A stretch of 64,000 nt of DNA from Gemmatimonadota bacterium (GCA_036679645.1 JAZDCY010000056.1:75911-139910); one strand, 5' to 3'. Shown: positions 2,485-44,262, counted from the stretch's first letter. The notes: generated from the sequence alone by a model not told the origin. Numbers and translations are program-made.

Positions 2485-2498
2485 AGGATTCCCTTGGC

Positions 2499-3860: not shown

Positions 3861-3877
3861 TCCTGCCCTTGAAGGAA

Positions 3878-5059: not shown

Positions 5060-5077
5060 GCTTCGGCGACCTCCTAG

Positions 5078-12578: not shown

Positions 12579-12588
12579 GACACGTGCC

Positions 12589-26764: not shown

Positions 26765-27283
26765 ATGAACGACGATACTCGACATCCGACACCGCCCGGC
26801 GATACGCCGGCGCTGGACAGACTGCTGGCCGGCCTGGGGCGGCTGAGCCCCGGACGCGGCTTCGAGCAGAAGGTGCTGGCGCTCGTCCGCATCCCGCTGC
26901 CCAAATGGGCCTGGCGAATCCGTGAGACGTTTCGCGGGCTCACCTCAGGTCCTCGGGGCTGGGTCATTCTGGGAACGCTGTCGCTGGCAACCGCGACGGC
27001 GTGGTTCGGCACTGCGGCTTTTGCCTTCCGGTTTCGCCATGACGCGGAGCCGTACGTAAGCAGAGGCAGTGACATCCTCACAAGAATCGTCGAGCCGGTC
27101 TGGGGCGAGATGCTCGCCCTTGGTGCGGCTCAGCGTGATGCCTTTGGCAACTCCGTCACGAACGCGTTCGGGGGATTGGGAGTCTCCTGGCCGGTGCTCG
27201 CAATCGGCTACGGCGTGCTCGTCGTGGTCAGCGCGATCGGCCTCAGGCTCCTCATGAACCGGCACGCCAAGGTGGATGGTTAA
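26765..27283 (+). CDS. membrane protein downstream of the ECF sigma (possible anti-sigma, unproven)
   Basis: 172 aa with two hydrophobic segments (WVILGTLSLATATAWFGTAAFAF and VSWPVLAIGYGVLVVSAIGL). No zf-HC2 motif seen. Confidence 0.55.
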   Translation: MNDDTRHPTPPGDTPALDRLLAGLGRLSPGRGFEQKVLALVRIPLPKWAWRIRETFRGLTSGPRGWVILGTLSLATATAWFGTAAFAFRFRHDAEPYVSRGSDILTRIVEPVWGEMLALGAAQRDAFGNSVTNAFGGLGVSWPVLAIGYGVLVVVSAIGLRLLMNRHAKVDG

Positions 27284-28605: not shown

Positions 28606-29456
28606 GACGCCGCATCACGTTGCTGGCCAGCCTGGCCGTGCTTGCGACGGCTGGCTTGGCAAGCGCGCAGTCCTACCGCACGGTCGTGGAGTCACGACAG
28701 ATGAGTGGTGAGCGAGACCTGAGTGTGAGCATCGGGTTCGCGGTTGGGCACATCCTGGTCGCACCCGCGCAGGGCCGCGAGCTTTACCGGCTCTCGATGG
28801 TCTACGACGAGGATTTCTTCCGACCCGATGTCCGGTACCGTGAGTCTCGCAACCGGCTCCGGGCCGAGCTCGAGTCGCTCGGTCGGCACGGTCGCCAGGA
28901 CGCAGATCTGGACCAGCAGATCGACCTCGTCATCTCGCCATCGGTAGCGCTGGATCTGCATCTCAAGTTCGGCGCAGCGGAAGCGGATCTCGAGCTGGGC
29001 GGTCTGTCGCTCACGGAGGGACATATCGAGACCGGTGCGAGCGAAACAACCGTTCGCTTCTCCGCACCCAACCGCGCCGTCTGCGAGTCACTGCGATTTG
29101 AGGTCGGTGCCGCAGAGTTTGAAGCGCTGAATCTCGCAAACGCCCGCTGTCGCCTTATCAAGCTCTCCGCAGGCCTGGCTGAGATACTGCTCGACTTCAC
29201 CGGTGAGTGGAGTGACGCGATCGAGACCAAGGTGGACATCGAGATGGGGTTGGGTGAGGTCCGACTGCGCTTCCCCGAAGACCTCGGCGTCCGGATCCGG
29301 GTCGATCGGTTTCTCGTCAGCGTCGATCGCAACGGCTTCGACAAGCGCGGCTCGACCTACACGTCGCGCAACTGGGACGACGTGACTACACACATCGAGA
29401 TCGATATCGAGGCCGCACTCGGTAGCGTCGAAGTGGAGTGGGTGCCCAACCGGTAG
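28602..29456 (+). CDS. secreted repetitive beta-strand protein, function unknown (possible LiaF-C/toast-rack-like fold)
   Basis: GTG at 28602 (GTGA overlap) gives VRRRITLLASLAVLATAGLASAQ, a signal peptide. It is followed by repeated D/E-alternating strands (ALDLHLKFGAAEADLELG, VDIEMGLGEVRLRF, IEIDIEAALGSVEVEW). This is the last third of the 726-aa track ORF. Confidence 0.55.
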   Translation: MRRRITLLASLAVLATAGLASAQSYRTVVESRQMSGERDLSVSIGFAVGHILVAPAQGRELYRLSMVYDEDFFRPDVRYRESRNRLRAELESLGRHGRQDADLDQQIDLVISPSVALDLHLKFGAAEADLELGGLSLTEGHIETGASETTVRFSAPNRAVCESLRFEVGAAEFEALNLANARCRLIKLSAGLAEILLDFTGEWSDAIETKVDIEMGLGEVRLRFPEDLGVRIRVDRFLVSVDRNGFDKRGSTYTSRNWDDVTTHIEIDIEAALGSVEVEWVPNR

Positions 29457-29542: not shown

Positions 29543-30526
29543 ATGTCGGTCACGATTCGACGCGCGGGCCCCGCCGATGCGGCAGCCCTGACGGCGATCG
29601 CCCTTGCGGCGAAATCACACTGGGGATACCCCGACGCCTGGCTCGCAGAGTGGCGACCGCAACTCACGCTCGCTCCCGACTACGTAACCCGTAATCCGGT
29701 GTTCGTCCTCGAAGAGTCACGGGAACCGGTCGGATTCTGCGCCCTCGCGCGTGAACCGGAACATTGGCTACTCGATCACCTGTGGGTGTCTCCCGCCGCG
29801 CACGGTCGTGGGTACGGACGCGCGCTGTTTCGACATGCCGTTTCGTACGCCGCCGCTGAAGCACCTGCGCTCGCGGTCCGCATCGAGTCCGATCCAAACG
29901 CCGAAGCGTTCTACGCCCACATGGGCGCACGGCGCACTAGCACCCACCCAGGGCCAGTGTGCGGACTGCCGCGCGAACTCCCCGTCCTCATCTATGAGAC
30001 CCAAATGATCATTTCACGACCCGCTCCCGACGAGTACGCCCCCTACTACGGCGGCTACATCGACCAGGTACCGGACGGTGACGTCTTGGACCTGTTGCAA
30101 CACCAGATCGGGCAGACGACCGACCTCATCTCGGGCGTAGCACCTGAGCGCGGCACATATCGTTATGCGCCGGAGAAATGGTGCCTCAACGACGTCCTCG
30201 GGCACCTTTGCGACACCGAGCGCGTTTTCACCTATCGGGCACTCCGCTTCAGCCGCGGCGATGCACAGGCACTGCCCGGCATGGAGCAAGACGACTACGT
30301 GACCGGAGCGAACTTCGCGGACCGCTCGACGGCGGACCTGCTGGAAGAACTCCAAACGGTTCGTGCCGCGACCATCACACTTTTGCGTTCGCTGACGCCC
30401 GAGATGCTCGCGCGGCGGGGCACGGCAAGCGATTGCCAGTTCACGGCCCGCGCCATTGCCTATGTCATTGCGGGACACGAGCGACATCATGTGCAGGTGC
30501 TCCGCGAACGCTACCTCGAACGCTGA
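29543..30526 (+). CDS. GNAT acetyltransferase fused to a DinB-family (DinB_2-like) domain
   Basis: The N-terminal ~155 aa are GNAT (HLWVSPAAHGRGYGRALFRHAV). The C-terminal ~170 aa are DinB-like (WCLNDVLGHLCDTERVF...IAGHERHHVQVL). It is a single ORF with no internal stop. Confidence 0.75.
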   Translation: MSVTIRRAGPADAAALTAIALAAKSHWGYPDAWLAEWRPQLTLAPDYVTRNPVFVLEESREPVGFCALAREPEHWLLDHLWVSPAAHGRGYGRALFRHAVSYAAAEAPALAVRIESDPNAEAFYAHMGARRTSTHPGPVCGLPRELPVLIYETQMIISRPAPDEYAPYYGGYIDQVPDGDVLDLLQHQIGQTTDLISGVAPERGTYRYAPEKWCLNDVLGHLCDTERVFTYRALRFSRGDAQALPGMEQDDYVTGANFADRSTADLLEELQTVRAATITLLRSLTPEMLARRGTASDCQFTARAIAYVIAGHERHHVQVLRERYLER

Positions 30527-30551: not shown

Positions 30552-31733
30552 ATGGCGCAACTCCATCCGGGATCAAAGGATCGGCGTGCTCATGTCCGGC
30601 GTTGGGGCTGGACGCTCGCTGCGGGAGCGTTCGCCTGCGGGCCTTCGCTGGTTCCGACAGTGCCGGCCCCGGTGGTTCTTGCTGGAGCAATCGAGCACTC
30701 GGTCTTCTTCATCGGCGATGCCGGCGCTCCGGCCGTGCCCACCGATCCGGTCCTGATCGCCCTCCGCGCCGCGGCATCCGAGCACCCGGAGCGGAACAGC
30801 ATCGTATTTCTCGGAGACAACGTGTACCCCATGGGGATGCCGGTGCGGGACGATCCGTCCCGGCAGGAATCGGAGCGGCGGCTCCAGGCACAGATCGATG
30901 CCGTGCCGCAGGGCGCCCGGGGCATCTTCGTCATGGGGAACCACGACTGGATTCGCGGCCGCGAGGGCGGGTTGGCAGCCGTTCGGCGCCAACTGGCCTA
31001 CATCGCCGATGCCGGCCGACCACTCGTCGTTGCGGCACCGACCGGTGGCTGCCCCGGGCCCGCGGTGATCGACGTCAGCGCGCGACTGCGCCTGGTGATG
31101 CTCGGCACCCAATGGTGGCTCCACGGGAGCGAGCGGCCCTCCGACCCGGCCTCCGCGTGCATCGCCGACTCGGAAGCGGAGGTCACCGACTCGCTCCGCA
31201 CCGTCGTGCAAGCAGGTCCCGATCGCATCGTCTTGGTCGCCGGACACCACCCTTTGCGCTCAGGCGGGGTGCACGGCGGCAAGTTCGACTGGAAGGACCA
31301 CATCTTCCCGCTGCGAGTCTGGAAGTCGTGGCTCTGGTTACCGCTTCCGATTATCGGGTCGCTGTATCCGCTGGTGCGGGGATCTGGCTTCTCGGCGCAG
31401 GACCTGGGCTCGGGACGCTACCAGACGATGCGGGACTCGATCGTCGCCGCCTTTGGCAGCCATCCGCCGCTTGCGTATGCAGCGGGGCACGAGCACAATC
31501 TGCAGGTTCTGGACGGCATGGGAGCTCGCTATCTCCTCGTATCGGGAGCCGGCATCTACGATCACCTCAGCCAGGCATTCCGACTCGAGGGTTCACTGTA
31601 CGCGCGGGCCGCGAGCGGTTTCATCCGCATCGATCTCCTCCGAGATGGACGCGTTCGCCTCGCGGTGCTCTTGGCGGATGGAGACGGCCGGTTGACCGAG
31701 GATTTCTCGATGTGGCTGGAGGAGAACCGATGA
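30552..31733 (+). CDS. secreted calcineurin-like metallophosphoesterase
   Basis: ATG at 30552 with a hydrophobic N-terminus WTLAAGAFACGPS. Motifs: FFIGDAG, VFLGDNVYPMG, VMGNHDW, VAGHHPL, AAGHEHNLQV. Confidence 0.8.
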   Translation: MAQLHPGSKDRRAHVRRWGWTLAAGAFACGPSLVPTVPAPVVLAGAIEHSVFFIGDAGAPAVPTDPVLIALRAAASEHPERNSIVFLGDNVYPMGMPVRDDPSRQESERRLQAQIDAVPQGARGIFVMGNHDWIRGREGGLAAVRRQLAYIADAGRPLVVAAPTGGCPGPAVIDVSARLRLVMLGTQWWLHGSERPSDPASACIADSEAEVTDSLRTVVQAGPDRIVLVAGHHPLRSGGVHGGKFDWKDHIFPLRVWKSWLWLPLPIIGSLYPLVRGSGFSAQDLGSGRYQTMRDSIVAAFGSHPPLAYAAGHEHNLQVLDGMGARYLLVSGAGIYDHLSQAFRLEGSLYARAASGFIRIDLLRDGRVRLAVLLADGDGRLTEDFSMWLEENR

Positions 31734-34282
31734 GACGCAAGGTACCCGGCACGGCGCTCCTGTTGGCAGCCGTCTCAGTCGCGGGTCCCTCATCGACGCA
31801 TGCACAACAGCGCGATAGCGTCCGGATCGCGGCCGGCTCCCAATACGATGCAGGTGGGTTCCACCGCCTCCTGTTCGGCGGTGATTATCGCGACCTGTGG
31901 CGTACCCCGATCTCTGTGCTCATGCTCGACCTGGATACGGCGAGCGGCGGCCTCACACCGACGACCGCAGGTGGAGGATTCCAGACGAAGTCCCTGCGCT
32001 TCCGCGACGCGAACGGGTTCCTCTATGGATTTCGGTCGGTGGACAAGGACCCCGCCGTCCTGCCGGACGAGTTGGCCGGAACCTTCGTCGAGGACCTCGT
32101 ACGGGACCAGACAAGCTCGGCCCATCCTGCCGGCTCCGGAATCGTTCCACCGTTATTGGAGGCGGTGGGCATTCTCCACACGGAGCCCCGGCTCGTCGTC
32201 CTCCCCGACGACCCCAGGCTCGGTGTGTTCCGGGAACGCTTTGCCGGGACGTTGGGCTATTTCGAGCTGCGTGGAATTGTGGAACCCGGCGCGCAACGGT
32301 TCGCCAACGCGCTAGAGATTCTCGACAGCGACGACGTATACCCAATGGTGCGGCAGAGCCCGGCACATCGTATTGACACCCGCCAGTTTCTCACAGCACG
32401 GCTCATCGATCTCTTGATCGGCGATTGGGATCGTCACCGGGGCCAGTGGGGCTGGGCGCGCTTCGATGACGCAACCGTCACCTATTGGACTCCCATACCC
32501 GAGGACCGCGATCAGGCCTTTGCGCGCTTCGACGGCCTGTTCCTGTCGCTGGGACGGGCAGCGGCCCCGCAGCTCGTGAACTTCGGCGATGACTATCCCA
32601 ACATGGTGGGCCTCACGTGGAACGGGCGGGAGAGCGACCGGTGGTTTCTCGTCCAGCTGGAAAAATCCGTGTGGGATTCGGTGGCTGCCGCGGTGCAGGC
32701 GCGAATCACGGACGCGGTCATCGACGCCGCGGTCGCGGGCATGCCCGTCGAGTATCAGGCAATCGACGGCGACCGCATGCGCCGGGCGTTGCGCGCGCGC
32801 CGCGACAAACTGCTCGAGGCAACCGACCGGTTCTACCGCGTGATCGTGGGAGAGGTTGACCTCCACGCAACGGAGGCGGCGGAGTTCGTAACGATCGACC
32901 GACATGCCGACGGCAATGTGACCGTCGAGATCACCGAGCGTCGTCCCGGCGCAACTCCCTGGCTCCGCCGCACGTTCGACGCGAGCGAGACCAGCGAAAT
33001 ACGGCTCTATCTCTATGGCGGCAACGATCGCGTCGTCGTGCGCGGGGACGGGCGAGGCATTGGCTTGCGGATCATCGGAGGTGGGAGCGACGAGGTGGTG
33101 GATTCCTCGCGTGCCGGCGGCGTCAGGTTCTATGCGACGGGGGTCGATCGCACGAGTGGGCCCACCGGGGTGCAGGTGGACCGCCGCGTGTACACGCCAC
33201 CAGCCAAACGGTTCGAGAGGGAACTGCCGCCACGCGATTGGGGCCACCGCTGGATGCCGGTGCTCTGGGCCGGTGGCGGGCCCGACATCGGTGCATTCGC
33301 GGGATTCGGCGCGTTTGTAACTCGGTGGGGATTCCGCAAGCTGCCGTACACATATCGGATTCGCGTACGCGGTGGCTACGCCACGGCAGCAAGGGCATTC
33401 CGGACCGACCTGCTCGCGACGTTCTATCGCATGAATTCCCGGATCCACGGTGACGTGTACGTCCGTGCGTCCGGAATCGAGGTGCTACGCTTCCACGGTC
33501 TAGGAAACGAGACGCAGCTCGACCGCCCGGATGATTTTTACCGTGTCACCCAGGACCAATACACTATCCAGCCGACGGTCACCGTTCCGCTGGGAACCCC
33601 CGCGACAATCACGTTCGGGCCTCTCGCGACCATCAGCGATACCGAGGCGCAACCGAACCGGATCATCGATTCACTCCAATCACTCCAACCGTTATACGGG
33701 GCCGGACACTTCAGTCAGGTCGGATGGCAGACTAGCGTGAGGTTCGATACCCGGGACGTCGCGGCCGCGGCTTCGCGGGGGGTAGCCATCGACGTTGGCG
33801 GCTCGGTCTACCCCGAGCTGCTCGACGTGGTAACGACCTTTGGTGAGGCCCACGCCACGGCATCGACATATCTCTCCGTCGGTGGCCCGGGCGCGCCCGC
33901 AGCAACGCTTGCCCTCCGCGCCGGTGGAAAGAAAGTCTGGGGAACTTTCCCCTTCCACGAGGCCGCTTTCATAGGAGATGACGCGACGGTGCGCCTGGGC
34001 CGCCAAAATCGTTTCGGCGGTGACGCCGCCGCGTGGGGCAACGCGGAACTCCGGCTGCGGGTGGCAAAGATCTCCTTTCCCTTGCCGGGCCATTTCGGCC
34101 TGCTAGGCCTCGCGGACGCCGGACGCGTGTTCCTCGAGGGCGAATCGTCGGACGACTGGCATACGGCGTTCGGAGGCGGCATCTGGTTTTCCTTCCTCCA
34201 ACCGTCGAATACCATAAGCGCGGCGGTTGCGCACAATAGTGAAGACGTGCGGTTGTATGTACGGGCCGGGTTTGCTTACTGA
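31730..34282 (+). CDS. signal peptide + kinase-like (PI3/4K-like motif) region + Omp85/surface-antigen-type C-terminal beta-barrel
   Basis: ATG at 31730 (ATGA overlap with the phosphoesterase stop). Signal peptide: MRRKVPGTALLLAAVSVAGPSSTHAQ. Kinase-like motifs: LIDLLIGDWDRHRGQW and IPEDRDQAF. The C-terminus (FGGDAAAWGNAELRLRV...LADAGRVF...GGGIWFSF...RLYVRAGFAY) resembles an Omp85 barrel. The ORF-track start at 30602 is an out-of-frame overlap with the upstream gene. Confidence 0.7.
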   Translation: MRRKVPGTALLLAAVSVAGPSSTHAQQRDSVRIAAGSQYDAGGFHRLLFGGDYRDLWRTPISVLMLDLDTASGGLTPTTAGGGFQTKSLRFRDANGFLYGFRSVDKDPAVLPDELAGTFVEDLVRDQTSSAHPAGSGIVPPLLEAVGILHTEPRLVVLPDDPRLGVFRERFAGTLGYFELRGIVEPGAQRFANALEILDSDDVYPMVRQSPAHRIDTRQFLTARLIDLLIGDWDRHRGQWGWARFDDATVTYWTPIPEDRDQAFARFDGLFLSLGRAAAPQLVNFGDDYPNMVGLTWNGRESDRWFLVQLEKSVWDSVAAAVQARITDAVIDAAVAGMPVEYQAIDGDRMRRALRARRDKLLEATDRFYRVIVGEVDLHATEAAEFVTIDRHADGNVTVEITERRPGATPWLRRTFDASETSEIRLYLYGGNDRVVVRGDGRGIGLRIIGGGSDEVVDSSRAGGVRFYATGVDRTSGPTGVQVDRRVYTPPAKRFERELPPRDWGHRWMPVLWAGGGPDIGAFAGFGAFVTRWGFRKLPYTYRIRVRGGYATAARAFRTDLLATFYRMNSRIHGDVYVRASGIEVLRFHGLGNETQLDRPDDFYRVTQDQYTIQPTVTVPLGTPATITFGPLATISDTEAQPNRIIDSLQSLQPLYGAGHFSQVGWQTSVRFDTRDVAAAASRGVAIDVGGSVYPELLDVVTTFGEAHATASTYLSVGGPGAPAATLALRAGGKKVWGTFPFHEAAFIGDDATVRLGRQNRFGGDAAAWGNAELRLRVAKISFPLPGHFGLLGLADAGRVFLEGESSDDWHTAFGGGIWFSFLQPSNTISAAVAHNSEDVRLYVRAGFAY

Positions 34283-34354
34283 CACCCCGCCATCGCTGCT
34301 AGGAGGCCCGATGACGAGCCACATGGATTCGATCGAGACGCTGGGACCTAGGCC

Positions 34355-35987
34355 GTGGAGGTAGTGAGCGACCGGGTCCGACCACTCACCACGACATCCA
34401 CCAGCCAGCGCAGTTCCAGCGCGTGGACGTGGAGTCTGGCGTCGCTGCCACCGGATCTTCTCGAGCAATCGTGCAAGCGGATTGCCATCGTCGCGATGGT
34501 CTTTGCGGGGCTCTGGATGCTCCCTCTGGTTCTCAACCCGGTTGCGCTCCGATTCGCACCCGATGACCCGTTCGTGGCAGGCGCCGCGTGGCCCATGCCC
34601 GGCAGGTTAATCGCGGGACTCGGGCTCCTGCTGTCGCTGGGAATGGTCTTCGTGGCGGCCAAGCTGCACCCCGCACCCTCCGTGCTGTTGAACACTGGGC
34701 TCGGATTCGAGGTCGCAACGGCCCTGCTGATCGGGATTCTCAATCAGTGGCAGCCCGTCCTCGTTCCCGGCCGTGCCTCCTGGATATGCATCATCATTCT
34801 GATCTATCCCGCGATCGTACCCAATACACCCACCAAGACGTTCATCGCCGCGTTTGCTGCCGCGTCGATGGACCCGCTCGGGTTCGGGATTGCCATGGCG
34901 CGCGGCGCCGTCCCCGCGGGTGAATTCACCGCCTTCACCGCCCTGTGGTATTTCCTCCCGGCGTACCTGTGTGCGGCCCTTGCAGTAGTTCCGGTACACA
35001 TCATCCGGAAGCTCGGGCGACAGGTCAGCAAGGCCCGGGAGCTGGGCAGCTACCGCCTCGGCGAATCGATTGGGACAGGCGGGATGGGAGACGTCTACCG
35101 GGCGGAACATCGGCTGCTGGCACGACCAGCCGCGATCAAGCTGATTCGCCCCGCGCTCCTTTCCACAAGCCGCCGGGAGGCGACGGTGATCCTCGAGCGA
35201 TTCCGCCGCGAGGCCGAGGCGGCGGCGCTGTTGCGCTCCCCGCATACCATCGAACTCTACGATTTCGGCGTGGCCGAGGAAGGGACGTTCTACCTGGTAA
35301 TGGAGCTACTCGATGGACTCAGTTTCGAGGTGCTAGTCGAGCGATTCGGCCCGGTTCCGCCAGAACGCGCGGTGTATCTCATGCTCCAGGCCTGTGCCTC
35401 CCTGGCCGAAGCACATTCCACTGGTCTGATGCATCGTGACATCAAGCCATCCAATATCTTTACCAACCGTCTCGGGCTCGAGGTCGATTTCGTCAAAGTG
35501 CTCGATTTTGGCCTGGTCAAGGCAGACCCCGGAAACGGGGTCGAGCAATCGGACCGGCACGCCGGCGTTCATGGCGCCGGAGGTCGCGCTCGGCGAGGAG
35601 ACCGCCGACCACCGCCTCGACGTATACTCGCTTGGGGCGGTACTCTATTGGATGCTCACCGGTCAGCTTATCTTCGAGGCATCCAATCCGATCAAGATGA
35701 TGCACCGACACATTAGAGACCAGCCGACGCCACCGTCGCAACGTACGGAACTCGACATACCACCCGAGCTCGACGACCTCGTCATGGCGTGTCTCGCGAA
35801 AGACCCTGAAGCGCGACCCGCGAACGCCGCGGCACTCGCCCATGCACTCGCCGAGATCGAGTTCCAAGAGCCGTGGACCACTGAGCGGGCGGAGCGTTGG
35901 TGGGATATGCACGTTCCAGACTGCATGACCGCCGGCGGCCCGTGCGACCAGGGAACGCTGGTACCTGCGTTGTCAGTCGCCGGGTAG
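34355..35987 (+). pseudogene. membrane-anchored Ser/Thr protein kinase, frameshifted inside the activation segment (pseudogene or homopolymer error)
   Basis: ORF 34355..35716 carries about 6 TM helices, GTGGMGDVYRAEH, AAIKLI, HRDIKPSNIF and DFGLVKADP. ORF 35436..35987 continues ...TGTPAFMAPE...DVYSLGAVLYWMLTG...ACLAKDPEARP. The frames meet at a C4 run (35527-30) and a G4 run (35537-40). Confidence 0.75.
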
Positions 35988-35998
35988 TCTCCACGCAC

Positions 35999-37423
35999 AT
36001 GCGCCGCGCCCTCCGAACCACCGTCGGCCTTACGGCGCTCCTTCTCGCGGGTCGTATTCCGATCATCGCGGCACAAGAGGCCGACACGGCCCGGCTTCGG
36101 AACATTCTCGATCTCAGTACGTCCCTGGAGACGCTCTCCACTCGGATAGCCCCGGCCGTCGTGCAGATCTTCACGACCGCCCTGGGACCCGTCGCGCCGG
36201 GATCCGGCGCCCAGCGAGTGGGTCTCCAACGGCGAGGTGGTTCCGGTTTCGTCCTGACATCGGACGGGTATATCCTGACGAACGCCCATGTGGTAGCGGG
36301 AGCACGCTCAGTACAGGTCCTGCTCGCACAGGCTGCCGCGCCCGATGCGCCCGGTCGGTCCGTCATACGGCCGGGGGGAAAGCGAGTGACCGGTACGGTT
36401 GTGGGGGCCGATTCAGAAACGGACTTGGCGCTCATCAAGATAGATGAGACCAATCTGCCGTTTCTCCAGTTTGGCGATTCGGACGAACTGGGCCCCGGGA
36501 ACCTCGTACTCGCCTTCGGAAGCCCCCTTGGTTTGGAGACCTCGATCAGTCTAGGCATCGTGAGCGCCGTGGGGCGGCAGCTGCGGCCGGAAAGCCCTAT
36601 GGTCTATATCCAGACAGATGCACCAATCAATCCTGGAAACAGCGGCGGTCCCCTCGTGGACACACGGGGACGTGTCATTGGCATCAACACGCTGATCCTC
36701 TCGCAGTCGGGCGGCAGCGAAGGCGTGGGCTTCGCGGTACCAAGCAACATCGCACGGAGCGTCTACGGGCAGCTCCGCAGTGCCGGGCATGTACGCCGCG
36801 GTATCGTCGGAGCCAACGTGCAGACGATCGACGTGGTCATGGCGGACGCACTTCGCCTTACGCAGGATTGGGGCGCGATCGTGACCGATGTGTTTCCGCG
36901 TTCCCCCGCCCAACAGGCGGGGCTGCAGGTGGGTGACATCATCGTCTCCCTCGATGGAAAGCCCATGGAGAACGGGCGCCAGTTCGACGTCAACGTCTAT
37001 CAACGCGCCGCGGGCGACATCATCCGTCTCGACGTGCGGCGCAACCTCCAGCGGCTCTCCCTGCAGGTGCGCGTGGTTGAGCGCGACCGCGACCCGAATC
37101 GCTTCGCGGATATGGCTCGCTCCGAAGAAAATCTGGTGCGTCGGCTCGGCATACTGGCCCTCGACGTGACGCCGGCCATTGCACGGCAGATGCCCTGGCT
37201 GCGCATGCAGACCGGCGTCGTCGTGGCCGCGCTTGCCGCCGACGTTCCGCGCATCGAGACCGGTCTCCGGGCAGGTGATGTGATTCATGCCGCGAACGGC
37301 GCCGCGGTCACGTCGCTCGCGATGCTGGCGGCGTTCCTCAACCAGTTGGACGTGGGCGATGCGGTGGTGCTGCACGTCGGCCGGTTCGGACGTCTTCGGT
37401 TCGTTGCATTCCGCATCGAGTAG
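35999..37423 (+). CDS. DegP/HtrA-family periplasmic serine protease with two PDZ domains
   Basis: ATG at 35999 gives the signal peptide MRRALRTTVGLTALLLAG. Catalytic triad context: TNAHVV, DLALIK, GNSGGPLVD. Two PDZ-like regions follow. Confidence 0.9.
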   Translation: MRRALRTTVGLTALLLAGRIPIIAAQEADTARLRNILDLSTSLETLSTRIAPAVVQIFTTALGPVAPGSGAQRVGLQRRGGSGFVLTSDGYILTNAHVVAGARSVQVLLAQAAAPDAPGRSVIRPGGKRVTGTVVGADSETDLALIKIDETNLPFLQFGDSDELGPGNLVLAFGSPLGLETSISLGIVSAVGRQLRPESPMVYIQTDAPINPGNSGGPLVDTRGRVIGINTLILSQSGGSEGVGFAVPSNIARSVYGQLRSAGHVRRGIVGANVQTIDVVMADALRLTQDWGAIVTDVFPRSPAQQAGLQVGDIIVSLDGKPMENGRQFDVNVYQRAAGDIIRLDVRRNLQRLSLQVRVVERDRDPNRFADMARSEENLVRRLGILALDVTPAIARQMPWLRMQTGVVVAALAADVPRIETGLRAGDVIHAANGAAVTSLAMLAAFLNQLDVGDAVVLHVGRFGRLRFVAFRIE

Positions 37424-38819
37424 ACGCGCCCTGCGGTGCGCGTTCTCGACACTCCTGCTGTGTACGACATCAGGCGCGGCAACAGCCCAAACTCACGACG
37501 GTTCCGGCAACAGCTATTGGGGAACCATACCACCACCGCACGATTCGGTAAGCGCGGTATTCGCCAGCGGGCCACGCCCCGTCTGGGAAACCGTCTTGCT
37601 CGTCCCATACTGGATCATGGGACTCCCGCTACGACTCCTCGCGGTCGGCGTCGGGGAAGGTGTCGAGTCCCTCGACGAGTCGGGCATTGCCAGTACGGTG
37701 GGTGGCTGGCTGGGTCCACGCACCGGACCGTTCGGGGTCGTCGTCAGCGCGCGGGCCGGCGGATTGAGTGGCGTCGGAGGCGGAGTGGCCGTTGAGCACA
37801 CGGAGCTGTTCAATCGACCGGGTACCGCATTTCGCGGGCGGGTAGCCGGTACGTTCATCGGTGACTTTCGCGCGAGCGGCGCGGTGCGAGTCCCCTTCTC
37901 GGAACGCAGCCTGCTCGACGTGGGCACTGGGTATCGATTTCGCAACAGGGTTCGCTACTTCGGTATCGGGCCCGAGCGCGGCGCTGAGGACGAATCGATA
38001 TTCCGCCAACGTACATGGTGGCTGGGAGGCGAGGTCACCGGCGGCTGGGGAGATCAGATCACCGCGACCGCCAGCCTCGTGTTTACGAGTGTCAAGCCAC
38101 TCGACGCGCGTGAACAGGACCAGAACAGCGACGACCCGCCTATCACCGTACGCTACGCAGACTCCCTGCCACCTGGCTTTGGCGAGACCTCTAACGGCAT
38201 GGCTCTGGGGGCGGAGATCATGCACCAGGACGCGACGGATACTGGTAGGCCGATGAGTGGCGGTATCCGTCGTGCCATAGTCGGCTACTTTCGTGGGACC
38301 GGCGGCGAGACGACCGAGTTCTGGAACGTACGGGGAGAGCTGCAGCAGTTCGTGCCGCTGTGGTATCGACATCACGTACTCGCCCTTCGGCTGGCGACCT
38401 CGTGGATGCAGCAGATTGGCGACGCGCCCATTCCGTTCACTCGCCTCATCTCGAACGACGATCCGGACCTCCTGCGCGGCTTCGACGACTTTCGCTGGCG
38501 CGACCGTGGGCTCGCGGTGCTGTCAGCGGAGTACCGCTGGCCGTTGTGGGCGTATGAGCGTGCGCAAGGTGCGGGCCTCGACTTCTACCTGCTCACAGAT
38601 GTGGGACAGGTCTTCAGCGACTTCGACGACATCCGCGGAGAGAACCTGACATTCTCGTATGGCGCCGGCCTGCGACTCGTCACTGCAGCGGGCTTCGCGC
38701 TGCGCATCGAGTATGCGCTCAGCAACGAGGACGTGGCGTTCCGCCTGCGTGGCGATCAGATCTTCCAGACCTTCCGAGGGGCGCTCTACCATGGACGCGA
38801 ACCGAACCCCGCGCGCTAG
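37404..38819 (+). CDS. Omp85/surface-antigen-like outer-membrane beta-barrel protein
   Basis: Proposed TTG start at 37404 gives (M)HSASSRRALRCAFSTLLLCTTSGAATAQ, a signal peptide. The C-terminus LRGFDDFRWRDRGLAVLSAEYRWPL...LLTDVGQVF...FSYGAGLRLV...ALRIEYA is typical of Omp85-type barrels. The start codon is uncertain. Confidence 0.6.
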   Translation: MHSASSRRALRCAFSTLLLCTTSGAATAQTHDGSGNSYWGTIPPPHDSVSAVFASGPRPVWETVLLVPYWIMGLPLRLLAVGVGEGVESLDESGIASTVGGWLGPRTGPFGVVVSARAGGLSGVGGGVAVEHTELFNRPGTAFRGRVAGTFIGDFRASGAVRVPFSERSLLDVGTGYRFRNRVRYFGIGPERGAEDESIFRQRTWWLGGEVTGGWGDQITATASLVFTSVKPLDAREQDQNSDDPPITVRYADSLPPGFGETSNGMALGAEIMHQDATDTGRPMSGGIRRAIVGYFRGTGGETTEFWNVRGELQQFVPLWYRHHVLALRLATSWMQQIGDAPIPFTRLISNDDPDLLRGFDDFRWRDRGLAVLSAEYRWPLWAYERAQGAGLDFYLLTDVGQVFSDFDDIRGENLTFSYGAGLRLVTAAGFALRIEYALSNEDVAFRLRGDQIFQTFRGALYHGREPNPAR

Positions 38820-40473
38820 GCTCGTCTCGCTGGCTGCGGGCGCGCTCCTGGTTTCCGCTTCGGGAGCGCTGCTCACGCCGTTGCGCGACGCTCCCGTCGC
38901 GTGGTACGCGGATGATATGCGCAACATAGCGGAACCCGCGGAACGCGAGCCGCACATCGTCCGCGCGGCGATCGACGCCACGCTATTCAGGCCGTTCGGT
39001 CGCTTCTTCCATCCCGGGCGGCTTGTCCGTCGGGTCGGTACTGCATTTGGAGGAGATCATGTTCCGGCCGCGGCGAACCTCAATGCGCTGGACGAGGTCC
39101 CGAATTCGAGTTGGTTCACGAATCGCCTCGGGCTCTTCCCGAGCGCTCCCGCCGTCGCCGCGCGGGGCCCAGCGGTGGGTGAAGGTCCATCAGCCCCGTG
39201 GACGGTGATTCGCCCGAAGACGCAAGGTGTGACACCAGGGTTCGATATTCGGGACGCCAACGGACAGGTCTGGGTCATCAAGTTCGACGTTGCAGGATTC
39301 CCCTCGATGTCCACAGCCGCAGGGGTCATCGCGGGGCGGATCTTCCATGCGGCGGGGTACAACGTGCCTGACGATCGGGTCGTAACGTTCACGCGCGACC
39401 AGCTCCAGGTCTCGCCCGATGCCGAGATGCGCGAGGGTGACGACCGCCGTCAAATGACCCATGCCGATCTGGACGAGCTACTGGCGCGCGTGGAGCGCAA
39501 TCCGGACGGGAGCTGGCGCGCTCTCGCGAGCAGGTTCCTTTCCGGTACGCCGGTTGGGCGCTTCGACTGGCGAGGACGGAGGCGAGACGATCCCAACGAT
39601 CGGGTCAACCATGAGAACCGACGTGAGATTCGCGGTCTAGCGGTCTTCGCCGCGTGGCTCTGCCACTACGACACCAAGCAGGGGAACACGCTCGACATGT
39701 ACGTCGAGGAAGATGGGCGTCGCTTCGTCCGTCACTACCTCATCGACTTTGCCTCCACCCTTGGGGCGGGCGGGACCGGTCCCTTCCCCGCCGCCTGCTA
39801 CGAGTACTCATTCGATTTCGGTGCTTCGTTCCTCCGTGTCCTGTCACTGGGCGTCTACCAGGACCCCTGGCGGCGGCTCGAGCGTCCCGAGGGGCTCGAT
39901 GAGATTGGATACTACGAGAGCGAGGTCTTCTCCCCTCGCGGGTTCAAGCCACTCGAGCCGAACGCCGCCTTCGCCAATCTGACGGATCGGGATGGCTATT
40001 GGGCAGCGAAAATCATATCAGCGTTCACGGACGCGCACCTGGAAGCGATGGTTGCGGGGGGACGCTACCGCACGCCGGAGGCGGCGCGTTGGATGCGGCG
40101 CGTGCTGGCAGAGCGGCGCGACGAGATCGTGCGGTACTGGTTCAGCCGGGTACCACCGCTGGATTTCTTCACGTACCATGACGGGACAGTGCGATTTCAC
40201 GATCTCGGGACGAGAAGCGGGATCTTTTCGGGGTCCGAGACGCGTTACCGTCTGAGGGTGGCCTACGCGACGCCGACGCGCGACCTTGGTCCCACGACCG
40301 ACTGGCTCGAACTCGAGCGGACGGAGACGGCGCTCTCGCAGATCGCAATCCCGGGCACCCCGGAGCCGTTCATAGCGATCGAGACCCAGCTCACACGGGG
40401 GGCGCGCTGGAGCCATTCGGTGACCGTGTTCATCGCGGCCGCGAGCGGGCGCGTTGTTGCGCTCGAACGATAG
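38791..40473 (+). CDS. signal/anchor-bearing protein with protein-kinase-like motif set, function unknown
   Basis: ATG at 38791 gives MDANRTPRARLVSLAAGALLVSASGALL. It carries RDANGQVWVIKF (beta3-Lys-like), CHYDTKQGNTL (DxKxxN-like) and HYLIDFASTLG (DFG-like) in canonical order. It overlaps the barrel gene end by 29 nt. Confidence 0.55.
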   Translation: MDANRTPRARLVSLAAGALLVSASGALLTPLRDAPVAWYADDMRNIAEPAEREPHIVRAAIDATLFRPFGRFFHPGRLVRRVGTAFGGDHVPAAANLNALDEVPNSSWFTNRLGLFPSAPAVAARGPAVGEGPSAPWTVIRPKTQGVTPGFDIRDANGQVWVIKFDVAGFPSMSTAAGVIAGRIFHAAGYNVPDDRVVTFTRDQLQVSPDAEMREGDDRRQMTHADLDELLARVERNPDGSWRALASRFLSGTPVGRFDWRGRRRDDPNDRVNHENRREIRGLAVFAAWLCHYDTKQGNTLDMYVEEDGRRFVRHYLIDFASTLGAGGTGPFPAACYEYSFDFGASFLRVLSLGVYQDPWRRLERPEGLDEIGYYESEVFSPRGFKPLEPNAAFANLTDRDGYWAAKIISAFTDAHLEAMVAGGRYRTPEAARWMRRVLAERRDEIVRYWFSRVPPLDFFTYHDGTVRFHDLGTRSGIFSGSETRYRLRVAYATPTRDLGPTTDWLELERTETALSQIAIPGTPEPFIAIETQLTRGARWSHSVTVFIAAASGRVVALER

Positions 40474-40483
40474 GGAGAATCAG

Positions 40484-41980
40484 ATGGCTACGAACGCTTC
40501 GCGGGATGGCCAAGCAAGCGCCGTAGATCGTTTTCTGCGCCTGTTCACAGAGGTGCGGGGCGGCGAGAGCACGACGGCGCTGCTGCTCGCGCTCAATGTT
40601 TTCTTGTTCCTGATGGCCTACTCTGTCATAAAAGTGCTCCGAGAACCCCTCATCCTGGCCGGTGGGGGAGACACGCTGAGCGGCGCCCAGCTCAAGGCGT
40701 ACACGGCCGCCGGCTCGGTGTTGCTGTTGGCGGTCATCGTCCCCCTGTACGGGGAACTCGCCGGCCGCGTTCCCCGGCGCCGTTTGATCAATATCGTAAG
40801 TGCGATATTCGTGCTGGCGCTCGGCGGATTCTTCCTGCTGGCCCAAACCGGTCTTAGCGTCGGGATTCCCTTCTTCATCTTCGTCGCGATCTTCAGCGTG
40901 ATGATCATCGCCCAGTTCTGGGCGTTCGCGAACGACGTCTATACGGAAGAGGAAGGAAAACGCCTCTTCCCCATCGTGGGCTTTGGTATGTCGGCTGGAG
41001 CGATCGCCGGGGTGTCGGTTACAATAGCGCTCGAACCGCTGGGGCTCAACGTGCTCTTTCTCCTCTCGGCCGGGGTGCTCGTCCTGGCTACCGCGATGAC
41101 CAACCTGATCGACCACCGCGAGCGACGCCGCACCGAAGCAACCGTACCGGATGCCATGACGAGTGGATTCCTGCCGGCGGCGACGGGGCAGTTCCGTGCG
41201 GCGACGGGAGAACTCAAGGCCACCGCCGAGAGTGAGGAGTACCAACGTGAGACCGGCACCTTCCGGACGGTCAAGCCCGGACAATCCATCGAGGAGACCG
41301 AGAAGGAACAGATCGAAAGCACCGCGGGCGCCTTCGCCCTGGTCTTCCGCAACCGGTACCTGCTCCTCATAGCACTCCTGGTCATGCTACTGAACTGGGT
41401 CAACACGAACGGGGGGTTCTTCCTGGATGACTTCATCACGCGGAGCGCGGAAGCGACCGTGGCCGACAATCCCCAAAGCGACCTCAGCACGGGTGAAATC
41501 ATAGGTTCGTTCTACGCACGATTCTATTTGGTCGTGAACATCGCCACGCTCTTGATCCAGGGCTTTGCGGTATCGCGCATCATCAAGTACTTCGGTGCAC
41601 GAGGAGCGATCCTCTTTCTGCCGATCATCGCGCTTGGCGCGTACACGCTCGTGGCCTTCATCCCAGTGCTGGCCGTCGCACGGTGGGCCAAGACCGCGGA
41701 GAACAGTATCGATTACTCACTCAACAACACGGTGCGCAACGTGCTGTTCCTGCCGACGACGCGGGAGGAGAAGTACAAGGGCAAGCAGGTCACGGACGCC
41801 TTCTCCCAGCGCGCCGGCGATGTCCTGAGCTCCGCGACGGTGTTCGTGCTGACGGGCCTGCTGGGCTTTGGAGGAATCGCCCTCGTGTACCTCAACATCC
41901 CGCTGGTGATCATCTGGCTGATCATCGCGGTGGCACTCGGGCGCCGGTACGGACGCCTCGCGGCCGCAACGGGGACCTAG
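40484..41980 (+). CDS. TLC-family (ATP/ADP-translocase-like, Npt-type) transporter
   Basis: ATG at 40484 follows AGGGAGA. About 12 TM. The motif QFWAFANDVYTEEEGKRLFPIVGFGMSAG is typical of TLC/NTT proteins. Confidence 0.8.
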   Translation: MATNASRDGQASAVDRFLRLFTEVRGGESTTALLLALNVFLFLMAYSVIKVLREPLILAGGGDTLSGAQLKAYTAAGSVLLLAVIVPLYGELAGRVPRRRLINIVSAIFVLALGGFFLLAQTGLSVGIPFFIFVAIFSVMIIAQFWAFANDVYTEEEGKRLFPIVGFGMSAGAIAGVSVTIALEPLGLNVLFLLSAGVLVLATAMTNLIDHRERRRTEATVPDAMTSGFLPAATGQFRAATGELKATAESEEYQRETGTFRTVKPGQSIEETEKEQIESTAGAFALVFRNRYLLLIALLVMLLNWVNTNGGFFLDDFITRSAEATVADNPQSDLSTGEIIGSFYARFYLVVNIATLLIQGFAVSRIIKYFGARGAILFLPIIALGAYTLVAFIPVLAVARWAKTAENSIDYSLNNTVRNVLFLPTTREEKYKGKQVTDAFSQRAGDVLSSATVFVLTGLLGFGGIALVYLNIPLVIIWLIIAVALGRRYGRLAAATGT

Positions 41981-44262
41981 TCGGCCTCGGACCGCCGTTT
42001 CTTGCGGAGTGCCTCGAGGTCTATCACGATCGAGGCGTTCGACTGCAGCAGGTCATTCAACACCGTATCGGCCGAACGGCGTTCGGTGGTCTGCTTCCGC
42101 GTATCCTCGAGAAACGGCCACAGGGCCTTGCGAATTTCATCCGGCAGCGCACTCTCCAGGTATTCGAGCGCGGTGCCGCGGAGGTGCGCGTCTTCCGTAT
42201 GCAGGCCCCGGAACGCGATCTTGAGCGGCTGACGGGGCAAGACGAGCGCAAGCATCGTAAACACGTGCTCGAGGCTGCGATTCGCTCGCTGTCGCAGCAT
42301 CTCATCCATGACCGGAGACCAGGACTCGTCTTCCATCTGATCCAGGATGCGATGGCTCTTCCACACCCCCTGATCGACGGCAACCTCACTGAGCACCGCC
42401 TCCTCCACCCGTTGCCGGCTGATGACCAGCTTGGGATTCCGATCCAGGAGGCGTGACAGAGCGCGGCCACAGCGGTACCTCACCTCGAAGCGCGAGTCGC
42501 GCAGCGCGCTCAGAAGCCCATCCACGGCGCGCCGATTGGGGCATGACGCGAGGACGAGCGGAAGCCGCCGCCGCACGGCGAAGTCCTCATCGGGATCGAG
42601 CAGCCGATCGCACAATTGCCCGGTCGCGCGTGGTGCGACGTCGCGCAGGGTCGCAATAACGTCCTGAGCCACAGCGTCCCACGCGAGTAGCGGCACCGCA
42701 TATGCGACGAGTGAGAGCGGGAACGGGCGGGTCGCGAGCACTCTGCGAACCGCGGTCGCGTCGCGAGACCGCAACTCGCCGATCTGCGCGAATTCCGGCG
42801 TGAGGGTGACCGCCGACGGCGAGGACCGCGCCGGCACCGCCGGCCGCTGCGCAGATGCGCGGACCTCTTTCAATGCCGGTCCGCTCGTATCGAATAGCGT
42901 CATACCCAACGCCCCGGCCGTCTGCAGCAATGCCGTGCGGGTAGCCGCCTCGCGCGCCTCAGCGAGATCCAACTGCCCTGCGCGCGATAGAAGACTCCGT
43001 TCCAGGGCCTTCACGTAACCGCGCTGCAGACGAATGGCGAGCATGGCACCAACGAGTGACACGGCGATCGTGAGTCCCAACAGGACTCCGGTCACCGCGC
43101 CGACCGCGACCGCGACGATGGTAACCTGAACGATCGCGCCCCCGATCACATCTCCGAGCCGAACCGCGCCGACGTCTACCAATACCTTGGTCGCGCGTTT
43201 CTGGCGCGGGGCGAGCGGAGCGAACAGCATCTCGTAGCCGGCTCGGTATAGCCCGTTCCGCATCACAGACTCGGCGCCCCGGACACCGATGATCATGCCG
43301 AGCCGGGGCGCGACGAGCGCAGCCGCTCCACCGAGCGCTATGGTTGAGGGAAGGAGAGCAACCGTACGCCCGAGTCCCAACCGCTCCAGCGACAGGCGAC
43401 TTCCGACCGCCTGCACGATCACCGTGAGAAGGGCGACGCCGGTATAGAACACCGCAAAGAAACGCAGCAGGGATTCCCCACTGCCGAACGACGCGGTCGC
43501 GCGCGCCTTGAACACGTAGTCGATGAGTCCTTCGCCAATCGTCGTGACGAGTACGAGTGCGACCAGACCACGCAGGTATCCTGTTCGAGCCAGGAGCTTG
43601 ACGCCGGCGAACGTGCTCTTCTCGGTGCGGGCTCCTGCGCGTACCGCGACACCGCCGCCGCGACGCACTCCTAGGACCGTTACCGCACACAGGACGTGCA
43701 GTGCGGCGAGGATTGGAAGCATGGCGGTTATCGAAAGGAGCGCAGCGGATCGTTCGGCGAGAATTCCCCCAAGCAGCCCACCAACGGTACCACCCGCCGC
43801 TATCCGTCCGATCTGACGTTTCGCCGTACGCGGGTCGAAGCGCTCGCTCACGATCGACCAGAAACCGGAGATCAGGACCGCACCGAGACCGGAGAAGTGG
43901 AAGTACACGGCAACCGCGACCGGCCGGCGGAAGGTATCCACGAACATCCACTCCGTGAGGAGCAGCGCACCGCTCACCAGGAACGCCAGCGGGACCACCC
44001 GTGCCGGGCCGAGCGTCATCAGGACGCGCGTCGTGCCAAACGCGAGCAACACCGACACCACCGCCGCGGCCATGACCATCGCCGGCAACGCCGAGATATC
44101 GAAGCTCGACAGGAACAGCGCGTCACGAGTCGCCTTGGCTGCCATCTGGAAGGCGATCATGACGGTGGCCGTCAGCGTCGCAGCAAAAACCGCGGAACGG
44201 AGATCCCGATCAGCGGTGATGGTCAGGCTCCGATGGGGCAGGTGTGAGGGTGACAGGCACAC
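41977..44262 (-). CDS. TLC-like transporter fused to a C-terminal HEAT-repeat domain
   Basis: 761 aa. The N-terminal multi-TM half has GFWSIVSERFDPRTAKRQIGRIAAGGTVGG, paralogous to the neighbouring transporter. The C-terminal ~300 aa have HEAT-like repeats (RRLPLVLASCPNRRAVDGLLSALRDSRFEVRYRCGRALSRL). The exact start is uncertain, because the first 53 nt overlap the upstream remnant ORF. Confidence 0.75.
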   Translation of the reverse strand: MCLSPSHLPHRSLTITADRDLRSAVFAATLTATVMIAFQMAAKATRDALFLSSFDISALPAMVMAAAVVSVLLAFGTTRVLMTLGPARVVPLAFLVSGALLLTEWMFVDTFRRPVAVAVYFHFSGLGAVLISGFWSIVSERFDPRTAKRQIGRIAAGGTVGGLLGGILAERSAALLSITAMLPILAALHVLCAVTVLGVRRGGGVAVRAGARTEKSTFAGVKLLARTGYLRGLVALVLVTTIGEGLIDYVFKARATASFGSGESLLRFFAVFYTGVALLTVIVQAVGSRLSLERLGLGRTVALLPSTIALGGAAALVAPRLGMIIGVRGAESVMRNGLYRAGYEMLFAPLAPRQKRATKVLVDVGAVRLGDVIGGAIVQVTIVAVAVGAVTGVLLGLTIAVSLVGAMLAIRLQRGYVKALERSLLSRAGQLDLAEAREAATRTALLQTAGALGMTLFDTSGPALKEVRASAQRPAVPARSSPSAVTLTPEFAQIGELRSRDATAVRRVLATRPFPLSLVAYAVPLLAWDAVAQDVIATLRDVAPRATGQLCDRLLDPDEDFAVRRRLPLVLASCPNRRAVDGLLSALRDSRFEVRYRCGRALSRLLDRNPKLVISRQRVEEAVLSEVAVDQGVWKSHRILDQMEDESWSPVMDEMLRQRANRSLEHVFTMLALVLPRQPLKIAFRGLHTEDAHLRGTALEYLESALPDEIRKALWPFLEDTRKQTTERRSADTVLNDLLQSNASIVIDLEALRKKRRSEAD

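Follow-up and report, generated by a model that had tools for sequence, protein, structure and literature searches.

In the eukaryotic secretory pathway, a lumenal ATP/ADP exchanger feeds kinases of the Fam20 type. In the textbook view of bacteria, the periplasm is without ATP and envelope processes are powered indirectly; the kinase-like protein HipA is cytoplasmic. In secretion systems of types Vb and Vd, an Omp85-family barrel is encoded beside the exported protein or fused to it. Here we describe a locus of a Gemmatimonadota bacterium in which genes for proteins that resemble several of these components lie together. It is contained in a stretch of 64,000 nucleotides (GCA_036679645.1, JAZDCY010000056.1:75911-139910), hereafter the window, and comprises six plus-strand genes at positions 30552-40473, termed G1 to G6, followed by two transporter genes, D1 and D2.

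The activity of the Helicobacter pylori kinase CtkA depends on a type IV secretion system (PMC5536186). Omp85 proteins that consist of a barrel without POTRA domains are known as 'noNterm' (Heinz and Lithgow 2014, PMC4104836). Free-living bacteria have genes for NTT transporters and for NTT-HEAT fusions, neither with an assigned role, and the fusions are widespread (Major et al. 2017, PMC5381601). A review describes the route by which ATP gets to the periplasm as unknown (PMC7432876).

We find that the locus contains members of two sequence-distinct enzyme families, exported as judged from signals read by eye and from a gene fusion, and that both families are always partnered with an Omp85-family barrel. 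The block is a composite of two modules, G1 with G2 (module A) and G5 with G6 (module B), which are apart in most other genomes. An original prediction made from the window had taken the six genes as one unit.

Architecture of the locus

The features of the locus, with their positions in the window, are as follows.

30552-31733, plus strand: G1, exported-looking calcineurin-like metallophosphoesterase, 393 aa (Pfam Metallophos)
31730-34282, plus strand: G2, fusion protein with a signal peptide read by eye, 850 aa (AlphaFold model, Omp85 matches)
31811-32848, plus strand: N-domain of G2, probably kinase-like, aa 28-373
32852-33181, plus strand: all-beta linker of G2, aa 375-484
33245-34273, plus strand: modelled 16-strand Omp85 barrel of G2, aa 506-848
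34355-35987, plus strand: G3, polytopic-membrane N-domain and C-terminal Hanks-type Ser/Thr kinase, frameshifted (Pfam Pkinase)
35999-37423, plus strand: G4, DegP/HtrA, a serine protease of the periplasm that has two PDZ domains (Pfam)
37404-38819, plus strand: G5, POTRA-less Omp85 barrel, 471 aa (Pfam Omp85)
38791-40473, plus strand: G6, predicted protein-kinase-like enzyme, exported or N-terminally anchored, 560 aa (AlphaFold model and motifs)
39193-40155, plus strand: kinase-like core of G6, about aa 135-455
40159-40470, plus strand: C-terminal fn3-like beta-sandwich of G6, aa 457-560
40484-41980, plus strand: D1, NTT/TLC-family transporter, MFS fold (Pfam TLC)
41977-44262, minus strand: D2, NTT-HEAT fusion transporter (Pfam TLC, HEAT_2)

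Gene boundaries were taken from a listing of open reading frames (ORFs) and from direct inspection of the sequence. The stop codon of G1 overlaps the start of G2 in an ATGA at 31730, and 72 nt separate the stop of G2 (34282) from the GTG start of G3 (34355). The DegP gene begins with an ATG at 35999, 11 nt after the end of G3 at 35987, a spacing that is valid only with G3 read across its frameshift. The stop of DegP (37423) and the TTG start of G5 (37404) overlap by 20 nt, the stop of G5 (38819) and the ATG of G6 (38791) by 29 nt. All five junctions agree with those of the original prediction, and its six domain calls are reproduced by Pfam or NCBIfam together with AlphaFold.

The end of the block, which had been set at 40473, moves downstream. 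The same-strand run continues into a seventh gene, D1, which starts 10 nt after the stop of G6, behind a Shine-Dalgarno-like GGGAGA motif. D1 and D2 are convergent, with stop codons that overlap by 4 nt, and the locus extends to 44262. These two genes are the most informative neighbours of the block and had been overlooked. A scan of the locus for promoters and terminators yielded nothing above the shuffled expectation.

Two conserved enzyme–barrel modules

The proteins of the window were mapped by tblastn onto 80 loci anchored on G6, with one genome per GTDB species. At least 1.3 kb of upstream sequence is available in 70 of these loci, at least 1.3 kb of downstream sequence in 71 and at least 5 kb downstream in 54; 44 are well flanked. 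All of the 70 loci with this upstream sequence (70/70) have a G5-type Omp85 gene immediately upstream of G6 and on its strand, often overlapping it by about 26-29 nt. This pair spans Gemmatimonadota, Eisenbacteria, Krumholzibacteriota, Latescibacterota, Zixibacteria, Acidobacteriota, and Ignavibacteria.

After the Omp85 gene, genes of the D1 and D2 types are the most frequent neighbours of G6. D1-type genes adjoin G6 in 31/71 loci and lie within 5.5 kb of it in 39/54, and a D2-type gene is near G6 in 23/44. Matches to Ser/Thr kinases are found near G6 in 24/44 loci, with the polytopic N-domain included in 17/44. DegP lies upstream of G5 in 11/44, mostly in Gemmatimonadota. The DegP and Ser/Thr kinase genes had been grouped with the others as members; they are frequent mainly in Gemmatimonadota and are not universal. 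The six-gene unit likewise gives way to two modules, as only 3/44 well-flanked G6 loci have a match of the type of the G2 N-domain (G2N) nearby and only 1/44 has G1.

A second set of 80 loci, on metagenome contigs, was anchored on the G2 N-domain. Here the barrel is fused to the N-domain or adjoins it in 58/58 informative copies, so the tie between kinase-like domains and barrels that the original prediction had proposed holds in both sets. A G1-type Metallophos gene lies directly upstream of the G2-type gene in 22/60 metagenome copies, and also in L004, L005, L086, and L009. Split forms of G2 occur in the order G2N-Metallophos-Omp85 (L087) and G2N-Omp85-Metallophos (L143, L167). Tandem G2-type paralogues, each with kinase-like domain and barrel, stand side by side on the same strand in L094, L128, L133, and L144.

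The accessory set of D1, D2, Ser/Thr kinase, and DegP is found around G2 in 12 independent loci. D1 flanks G2-type genes in L105, L109, L111, L132, L146, L092, and others, D2 lies downstream of G2 in L105, L109, L132, L146, and L153, and a G3-type kinase is near some G2 loci. Four of these loci have the following gene orders.

L105, all on one strand: Ser/Thr kinase, D1, G1, G2, D2
L109: D1, G1, G2, D2
L132: Ser/Thr kinase, D1, G2, D2
L146: DegP, D1, G2, D2

A joint function of these genes is argued most strongly by the fact that two distinct enzyme–barrel modules share their NTT, NTT-HEAT, polytopic Ser/Thr kinase, and DegP neighbours. A survey of gene neighbourhoods, proposed with the original prediction, thus finds the sub-modules conserved and the complete order of the window only in L009. 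In CP070716, the G1-G2 and G6 modules are present in the same genome at different places.

Module B also varies in its surroundings. A second, paralogous polytopic Ser/Thr kinase gene follows directly after G6 on the opposite strand in most Gemmatimonadota loci (L001, at 11705-13300 on the minus strand, and at the same position in L011-L015, L020, L022, L024, and L026-L033). Between it and the NTT-like gene there is often a stretch of about 1.6 kb without an identified gene; the window lacks both. Two Omp85-G6 pairs are present in L045, inverted (1715-4623, minus; 8551-11626, plus), and in L080, in tandem (129-2541 and 3205-5815). As these two-copy loci show, the pair duplicates as a unit. In L002, from Eisenbacteria, the Ser/Thr kinase gene and the Omp85-G6 pair flank a different Metallophos gene (7495-8649, minus strand), which is on the opposite strand and which tblastn at 1e-6 failed to recognise as a homologue of G1. 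Some lineages may therefore combine module B, too, with a phosphoesterase.

G6 belongs to a kinase-like family

G6 has no match in Pfam or NCBIfam but carries a complete set of kinase motifs. PADLOC contains no family that matches it. The family has more than 3,200 homologues, of which every named one is called 'hypothetical protein'; it forms 2,792 clusters (50% identity, E ≤ 1e-3), and relatives are present in genomes of 302 GTDB species.

The AlphaFold model of G6, computed from an alignment of 31 sequences, has a pLDDT of 74.9 and a pTM of 0.78. Its bilobal fold identifies G6, at the level of the model, as a member of the superfamily of protein-kinase-like (PKL) proteins. The top match of a Foldseek search against the PDB is the Golgi casein kinase Fam20C (4kqa/4kqb; E 7e-4, probability 0.99-1.0), and further matches are aminopropanol kinase, PIK3C3, AAK1, amicoumacin kinase, alpha-kinase, SidJ, and HipA. 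The C-terminal 100 residues resemble fn3-type sandwiches in the same kind of search. The likeness to Fam20 is one of fold only, and G6 stands outside the Fam20 sequence family, because Pfam finds nothing in G6 or its relatives (31 members) even at E ≤ 10, the Fam20C model included.

In the family alignment, a Gly-rich loop and the beta3 Lys (IKFD) are seen together with HxDxKxxN as catalytic loop and with the motif DF[G/A]. Among 154 relatives, down to about 35% identity, Lys164 is conserved in 147, Asp294 in 148, Asn299 in 145, and Asp319 in 149, and the third residue of the DFG motif is Gly in 99. As far as conservation can tell, this is the pattern of an active nucleotide-dependent enzyme and not of a pseudokinase. 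The full kinase-like motif set reported for G6 is thus borne out, with catalytic residues conserved across the family and a kinase-like fold in the model, and the option of a displayed pseudokinase binding domain becomes unlikely because these residues are near-invariant.

The only two cysteines of G6, Cys291 (39661-39663) and Cys336 (39796-39798), are both present in 10 of the 154 relatives and both absent in 144. Their co-occurrence, a count that is confounded by shared ancestry, suggests a clade-specific disulfide beside the catalytic loop, as would fit an oxidising compartment.

A PNSSWFTNR motif at aa 104-112 (39100-39126) is almost invariant, with Arg112 in 153/154 relatives and Trp108 in 145/154. 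It is located N-terminal to the kinase core, in a region modelled with low confidence, and may be the site at which G6 docks on its Omp85 partner.

G2 joins a probable kinase-like domain to a barrel

The C-terminus of G2 matches Omp85 below the family thresholds (Pfam 23.2 against a cut-off of 24; NCBIfam Omp85_fam 3.8e-17, below its cut-off). In the AlphaFold model (pLDDT 79.9, pTM 0.80) it forms 16 barrel strands, as anticipated, and Foldseek matches the barrel to BamA with E 1e-9. The N-domain spans aa 30-373 in this model. As it precedes the 16-strand outer-membrane barrel in one fused protein, the N-domain of G2 is necessarily extracytoplasmic.

The N-domain has more than 2,500 homologues. 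In an alignment of 144 of them, Lys106, Asp126, Asp232, Asp234, Arg235, His236, Gln239, Asp259, Arg260, and Asp261 are invariant or nearly so. A catalytic-type loop, GDWDRHRGQW, is followed by a DRD motif; Asp234-Arg235-His236 and Asp259-Arg-Asp261 are invariant, and Gln239, at the position where Asn is expected, is found in 141/144 homologues. An N-lobe sheet that ends in the Lys is followed by a helix with the invariant Asp and by a helix-loop-strand-strand-Asp succession. This order of motifs and secondary structure elements in the model fits a kinase-like fold.

Database searches returned little for this domain. Pfam at E ≤ 10 assigned no family to the N-domain in 31 G2 members, HipA and PI3_PI4_kinase included, and neither NCBIfam nor PADLOC matched it. 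A profile search of PDB sequences yielded only the loop of H. pylori CtkA (GNFDRHNGNW against GDWDRHRGQW), a weak local match with E 0.2. Of the PI3/4-kinase-like N-terminus assigned to G2 in the original prediction, the motifs stand, as invariant DRHxxQ and DRD, and the kinase fold is plausible, though fold search did not confirm it.

G5 is a barrel without POTRA domains

G5 matches Pfam Omp85 with 48.9 bits against a cut-off of 24 (E 8.9e-13), in line with its description as a stand-alone Omp85-like barrel. Omp85_fam of NCBIfam is matched by G5 and G2 at about 1e-16 to 1e-17, below its cut-off. No POTRA or ShlB-type N-domain match reaches the Pfam cut-off in G5 and 10 diverse homologues searched at E ≤ 1; weak ShlB-type matches are seen in some barrels. 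In G5 homologues, the profile of the Omp85 barrel starts at about aa 130-160 and is preceded by a conserved non-POTRA segment of about 100 aa with a SYWGxIP...WE...VPY motif. G2 has no POTRA match either, and the region before its barrel is all-beta and helix-free, unlike POTRA.

D1 and D2 are NTT-type transporters

D1 matches Pfam TLC (PF03219) with 45.6 bits against a cut-off of 21. A profile of 15 D1 homologues aligns with the PDB entry 9j3n, 'ADP,ATP carrier protein 1', with E 3.5e-15 over positions 12-452, which is nearly the full length. By these profile matches, D1 is a genuine member of the NTT/TLC superfamily. D2 reaches 27.8 bits for TLC (cut-off 21) and 26.0 for HEAT_2, just under the cut-off of 27.7.

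The phosphoesterase, Ser/Thr kinase, and DegP genes

G1 matches Pfam Metallophos with 25.8 bits against a cut-off of 21.5. Among solved structures, purple acid phosphatases / TRAP type 5 are its closest relatives, matched around GHEHN with E 2e-3. Signal peptides were read by eye on the basis of an n-h-c pattern; a simple hydrophobicity rule, which also passed a cytoplasmic control, was discarded. The N-terminus of G1 read in this way is basic and then hydrophobic, RRWGWTLAAGAFAC. An exported phosphoesterase had been proposed here, and G1 does appear as an exported-looking Metallophos protein that recurs beside G2.

In G3, a Pkinase domain (Pfam) comes after about six hydrophobic segments. The Pkinase profile is split, with positions 1-147 in the ORF at 34355-35716 and positions 152-261 in the ORF at 35436-35987. 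Compared with the intact homologues of L009 and L001, about 7 activation-loop residues are missing, with a change of frame near 35525-35540. At 35490-35580 the sequence reads DFGLVKADPGNGVEQS, and ...TGTPAFMAPE then follows in another frame. The window therefore has no intact Pkinase domain in G3; homologues in other genomes are intact. The frameshift could be that of a true pseudogene or an assembly error. Of the polytopic Ser/Thr kinase described earlier, the membrane segments and the Pkinase domain are confirmed, in a gene that is split. PADLOC matches of G3 reflect generic Ser/Thr-kinase similarity and do not point to a defence system.

G4 is identified as DegP/HtrA, as proposed, by Trypsin_2 (E 1.5e-36) and by PDZ_2 in two stretches (E 4e-23). 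Its N-terminus, MRRALRTTVGLTALLLAG...IAAQE, resembles a signal peptide by eye.

Upstream of G1 there are two further genes.

27276-29456, plus strand: U1, 726 aa, weak LiaF-like C-terminal match (Pfam)
29543-30526, plus strand: U2, GNAT-DinB_2 fusion (Pfam)

The LiaF-like family is linked to the response against cell-wall-active antibiotics. U1 scores 23 bits for LiaF-like_C, below the Pfam cut-off of 29, and most of U1 has no domain match. U2 is a single ORF with a GNAT acetyltransferase domain (aa 31-128) and a DinB_2 domain (aa 187-319). Both genes are kept upstream of G1/G2 in L009 and L089 only, and their membership in the system is doubtful.

Proposed mechanism and alternatives

We propose that the locus encodes an extracytoplasmic phosphotransfer system, composed of two parallel enzyme-on-barrel modules that share support genes. 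The mechanism is drawn from genomic context, and we hold this reading to be a little short of an even chance. In the proposed cycle, the NTT antiporters would run outward, so that ATP leaves the cytoplasm in exchange for ADP, perhaps with Pi, from the periplasm. The exported ATP would serve as phosphate donor for the barrel-docked kinases in a compartment that is usually held free of ATP. The kinases would phosphorylate an envelope or surface substrate, which may be of protein, glycan, or lipid nature and be handled at the barrel or through it, and G1 would remove the phosphate. DegP and the membrane Ser/Thr kinase could provide quality control and regulation.

The more general form of this proposal is that some diderm bacteria (Gemmatimonadota and several phyla mostly of the FCB group) use NTT-fed periplasmic ATP to power kinases that sit on POTRA-less Omp85 barrels or are fused to them and that phosphorylate envelope or surface substrates, with an eraser like a purple acid phosphatase (PAP). 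This general form we regard as possible, on the doubtful side.

A number of observations weigh against the proposed phosphotransfer system. No NTT-like gene is nearby in 13/44 well-flanked G6 loci, including the closest relative of the window (L006), and no consistent replacement partner is found downstream of G6 in these 13. Only 12/80 G2 loci have an NTT-like gene. In G6, the alphaC position 178 is Gly in the window protein and its close relatives; it is Glu or Asp in 118/153 relatives. The G2 N-domain is probably kinase-like, with a loop of the HipA/CtkA/PI3-4-kinase type, and support for its fold is moderate. With the full-length G2 model, only barrels are among the top 50 listed Foldseek matches in the PDB, and a viral library returned barrel-like proteins together with giant-virus protein kinases, the latter weakly (E 0.17-0.6).

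Comparison of the two enzyme families belongs with these points. Between G6 and G2, BLASTP and a first hhalign run revealed no more than one helix in common (TDxxIxAxV...RRD). With more diverse alignments of G6 and G2N, hhalign covers 393 columns and places HxDxKxxN on DxDxHxxQ, and the helix downstream of these is strongly similar. The score is 37.4, against 29.0 with the reversed control and 15.6-21.0 with shuffles; since it is only modestly above the reversed-profile control, homology of the two families is, from their sequences, suggestive only. Moreover, kinase-like folds are known to carry out AMPylation, glutamylation, and other chemistries. Finally, all characterised NTTs are nucleotide importers (PMC5381601).

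The main alternative is a type V-like system for secretion or surface display, in which the barrels would be translocators and not anchors: G5 would export G6 as TpsB exports TpsA and G2 would display its own enzyme as does the type Vd protein PlpD. We consider it rather unlikely. It overlaps with the phosphotransfer proposal and differs from it mainly in the final location of the enzyme, at the surface or in the environment, hence in topology rather than in logic. The barrel gene overlaps or adjoins the gene of the exported protein in 70/70 loci, fused and split enzyme–barrel versions both exist, as in types Vb and Vd, the helix-free all-beta linker of G2 (aa 375-484) recalls autotransporter stalks, and there are the weak ShlB-type matches. 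Yet no POTRA domain is detected in G5 or G2, and Pfam finds no TPS domain in G6 and no patatin domain in G2. The N-terminal domains of Omp85 proteins are periplasmic by default, and a kinase at the surface or outside the cell would need a source of ATP even more than a periplasmic one.

It is also conceivable, though clearly unlikely, that the kinase-like proteins are not ATP-dependent kinases. They might use another donor, perform AMPylation or glutamylation, transfer phosphate to lipids or lipopolysaccharide from a lipid-linked donor, or be non-catalytic subunits that replace POTRA domains in a specialised Omp85 insertase, and the NTTs would then move something else. SidJ and HipA are among the structural matches of G6, in keeping with a fold that supports several chemistries, G6 of the window lacks the alphaC Glu, and G2 has Gln in place of the metal-binding Asn of kinases. 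A docking partner could stand in for the POTRA domains missing from G5 and G2, and DegP with the nearby LiaF-like gene suggests a theme of envelope biogenesis or envelope stress. However, both families keep Lys, Asp, Asn/Gln, and Asp near-invariant, which points to catalysis with a nucleotide and a metal, most relatives of G6 have a literal DFG and an alphaC Glu or Asp, and a solved ADP,ATP carrier aligns with nearly all of D1.

Salvage of nucleotides or phosphate is improbable. In such a system, the NTTs would import from the periplasm as they do in intracellular parasites, G1 and the kinase-like enzymes would process extracellular nucleotides or organophosphates, and the barrels would admit these compounds. 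Exported Metallophos enzymes do include nucleotidases and phosphodiesterases, and G1 resembles secreted purple acid phosphatases; the import direction of the characterised NTTs cited above would be retained. Omp85 barrels are not known to act as solute channels, however, and salvage leaves both the conserved kinase-type active site and the obligate tie to Omp85 unexplained. In addition, G1 goes with G2 and not with the G6-NTT core (1/44 G6 loci).

An accidental gathering of unrelated envelope genes in a single genome would agree with the separation of the G1-G2 and G3-G6 halves in most genomes and with the restriction of the full order to L009. It is scarcely credible and for the sub-modules largely refuted, as enzyme–barrel pairs are 100% conserved across phyla and the accessory set of D1, D2, polytopic Ser/Thr kinase, and DegP turns up independently with each of the two modules; from the synteny counts, the arrangement is not chance.

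If the phosphotransfer proposal is correct, it would establish ATP-dependent phosphorylation in the bacterial envelope, and the system would be a prokaryotic counterpart of the eukaryotic secretory kinase system of the Fam20 type. Orphan 'noNterm' Omp85 and NTT-HEAT proteins would gain a function, and the NTT genes of free-living bacteria a role. Should the mechanism prove wrong, two new enzyme families have still been defined, with strict barrel partnerships and active-site residues that can be tested.

Comparison with known systems

What is new here is the whole assembly, in which the enzyme families, Omp85 barrels, and NTT transporters come together; the mechanism is offered as a hypothesis. 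Literature searches on a link between Omp85 and kinases, on periplasmic kinases, and on new bacterial kinase-like families returned no description of these families or of an association of Omp85, kinase, and NTT. The original prediction had likewise assigned the locus to no characterised system, and this view persists after comparison with the Fam20 sequence family, two-partner secretion, and PlpD, to none of which the proteins of the locus could be assigned.

In architecture, the closest systems are those of types Vb and Vd (PlpD), with an Omp85-family barrel encoded beside the exported enzyme, as in G5-G6, or fused C-terminally to it, as in G2. In contrast to these systems, there is no POTRA, TPS, or patatin match here, and the cargo is kinase-like. 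We rejected membership in two-partner secretion, as no TPS domain and no Pfam match at all is found in the N-terminus of G6 or of 30 homologues and POTRA is lacking, and membership in type Vd, as G2 and 30 homologues have no patatin or POTRA match and share only the layout of enzyme followed by barrel.

The catalytic loop of G2 is closest to kinases of the HipA/CtkA/PI3-4-kinase type, with GDWDRHRGQW and DRD compared with GNFDRHNGNW in CtkA. It differs in that this match is weak and local (E 0.2), in the Gln that replaces the metal-binding Asn, and in the lack of a Pfam HipA or PI3_PI4_kinase match; neither HipA nor CtkA is fused to a barrel.

G5 resembles the 'noNterm' Omp85 proteins in being a barrel without POTRA, and differs from them in its N-terminal non-POTRA segment of ~100 aa and in its obligate kinase-like partner; the paper on these proteins contains no occurrence of 'kinase' and no mention of Metallophos-Omp85 fusions (PMC4104836). 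D2 shares the NTT-HEAT architecture described by Major et al. 2017, and D1 and D2 belong to the same superfamily; no link to exported kinases or Omp85 proteins was proposed in that work (PMC5381601).

In fold and logic, the Fam20C secretory kinases are closest. Fam20C is the best structural match of G6, and both have a kinase fold and a location outside the cytosol, which for G6 is predicted. An ATP/ADP-exchanger-type transporter is present in the genomic context here and in the cellular context of Fam20, and G1 would be the PAP-type eraser. The differences are a structural alignment with only ~10% identity and TM-scores of 0.26-0.35, no Pfam Fam20C match and, in the locus described here, a bacterial setting, an Omp85 barrel as partner, and a transporter of the NTT type rather than SLC35.

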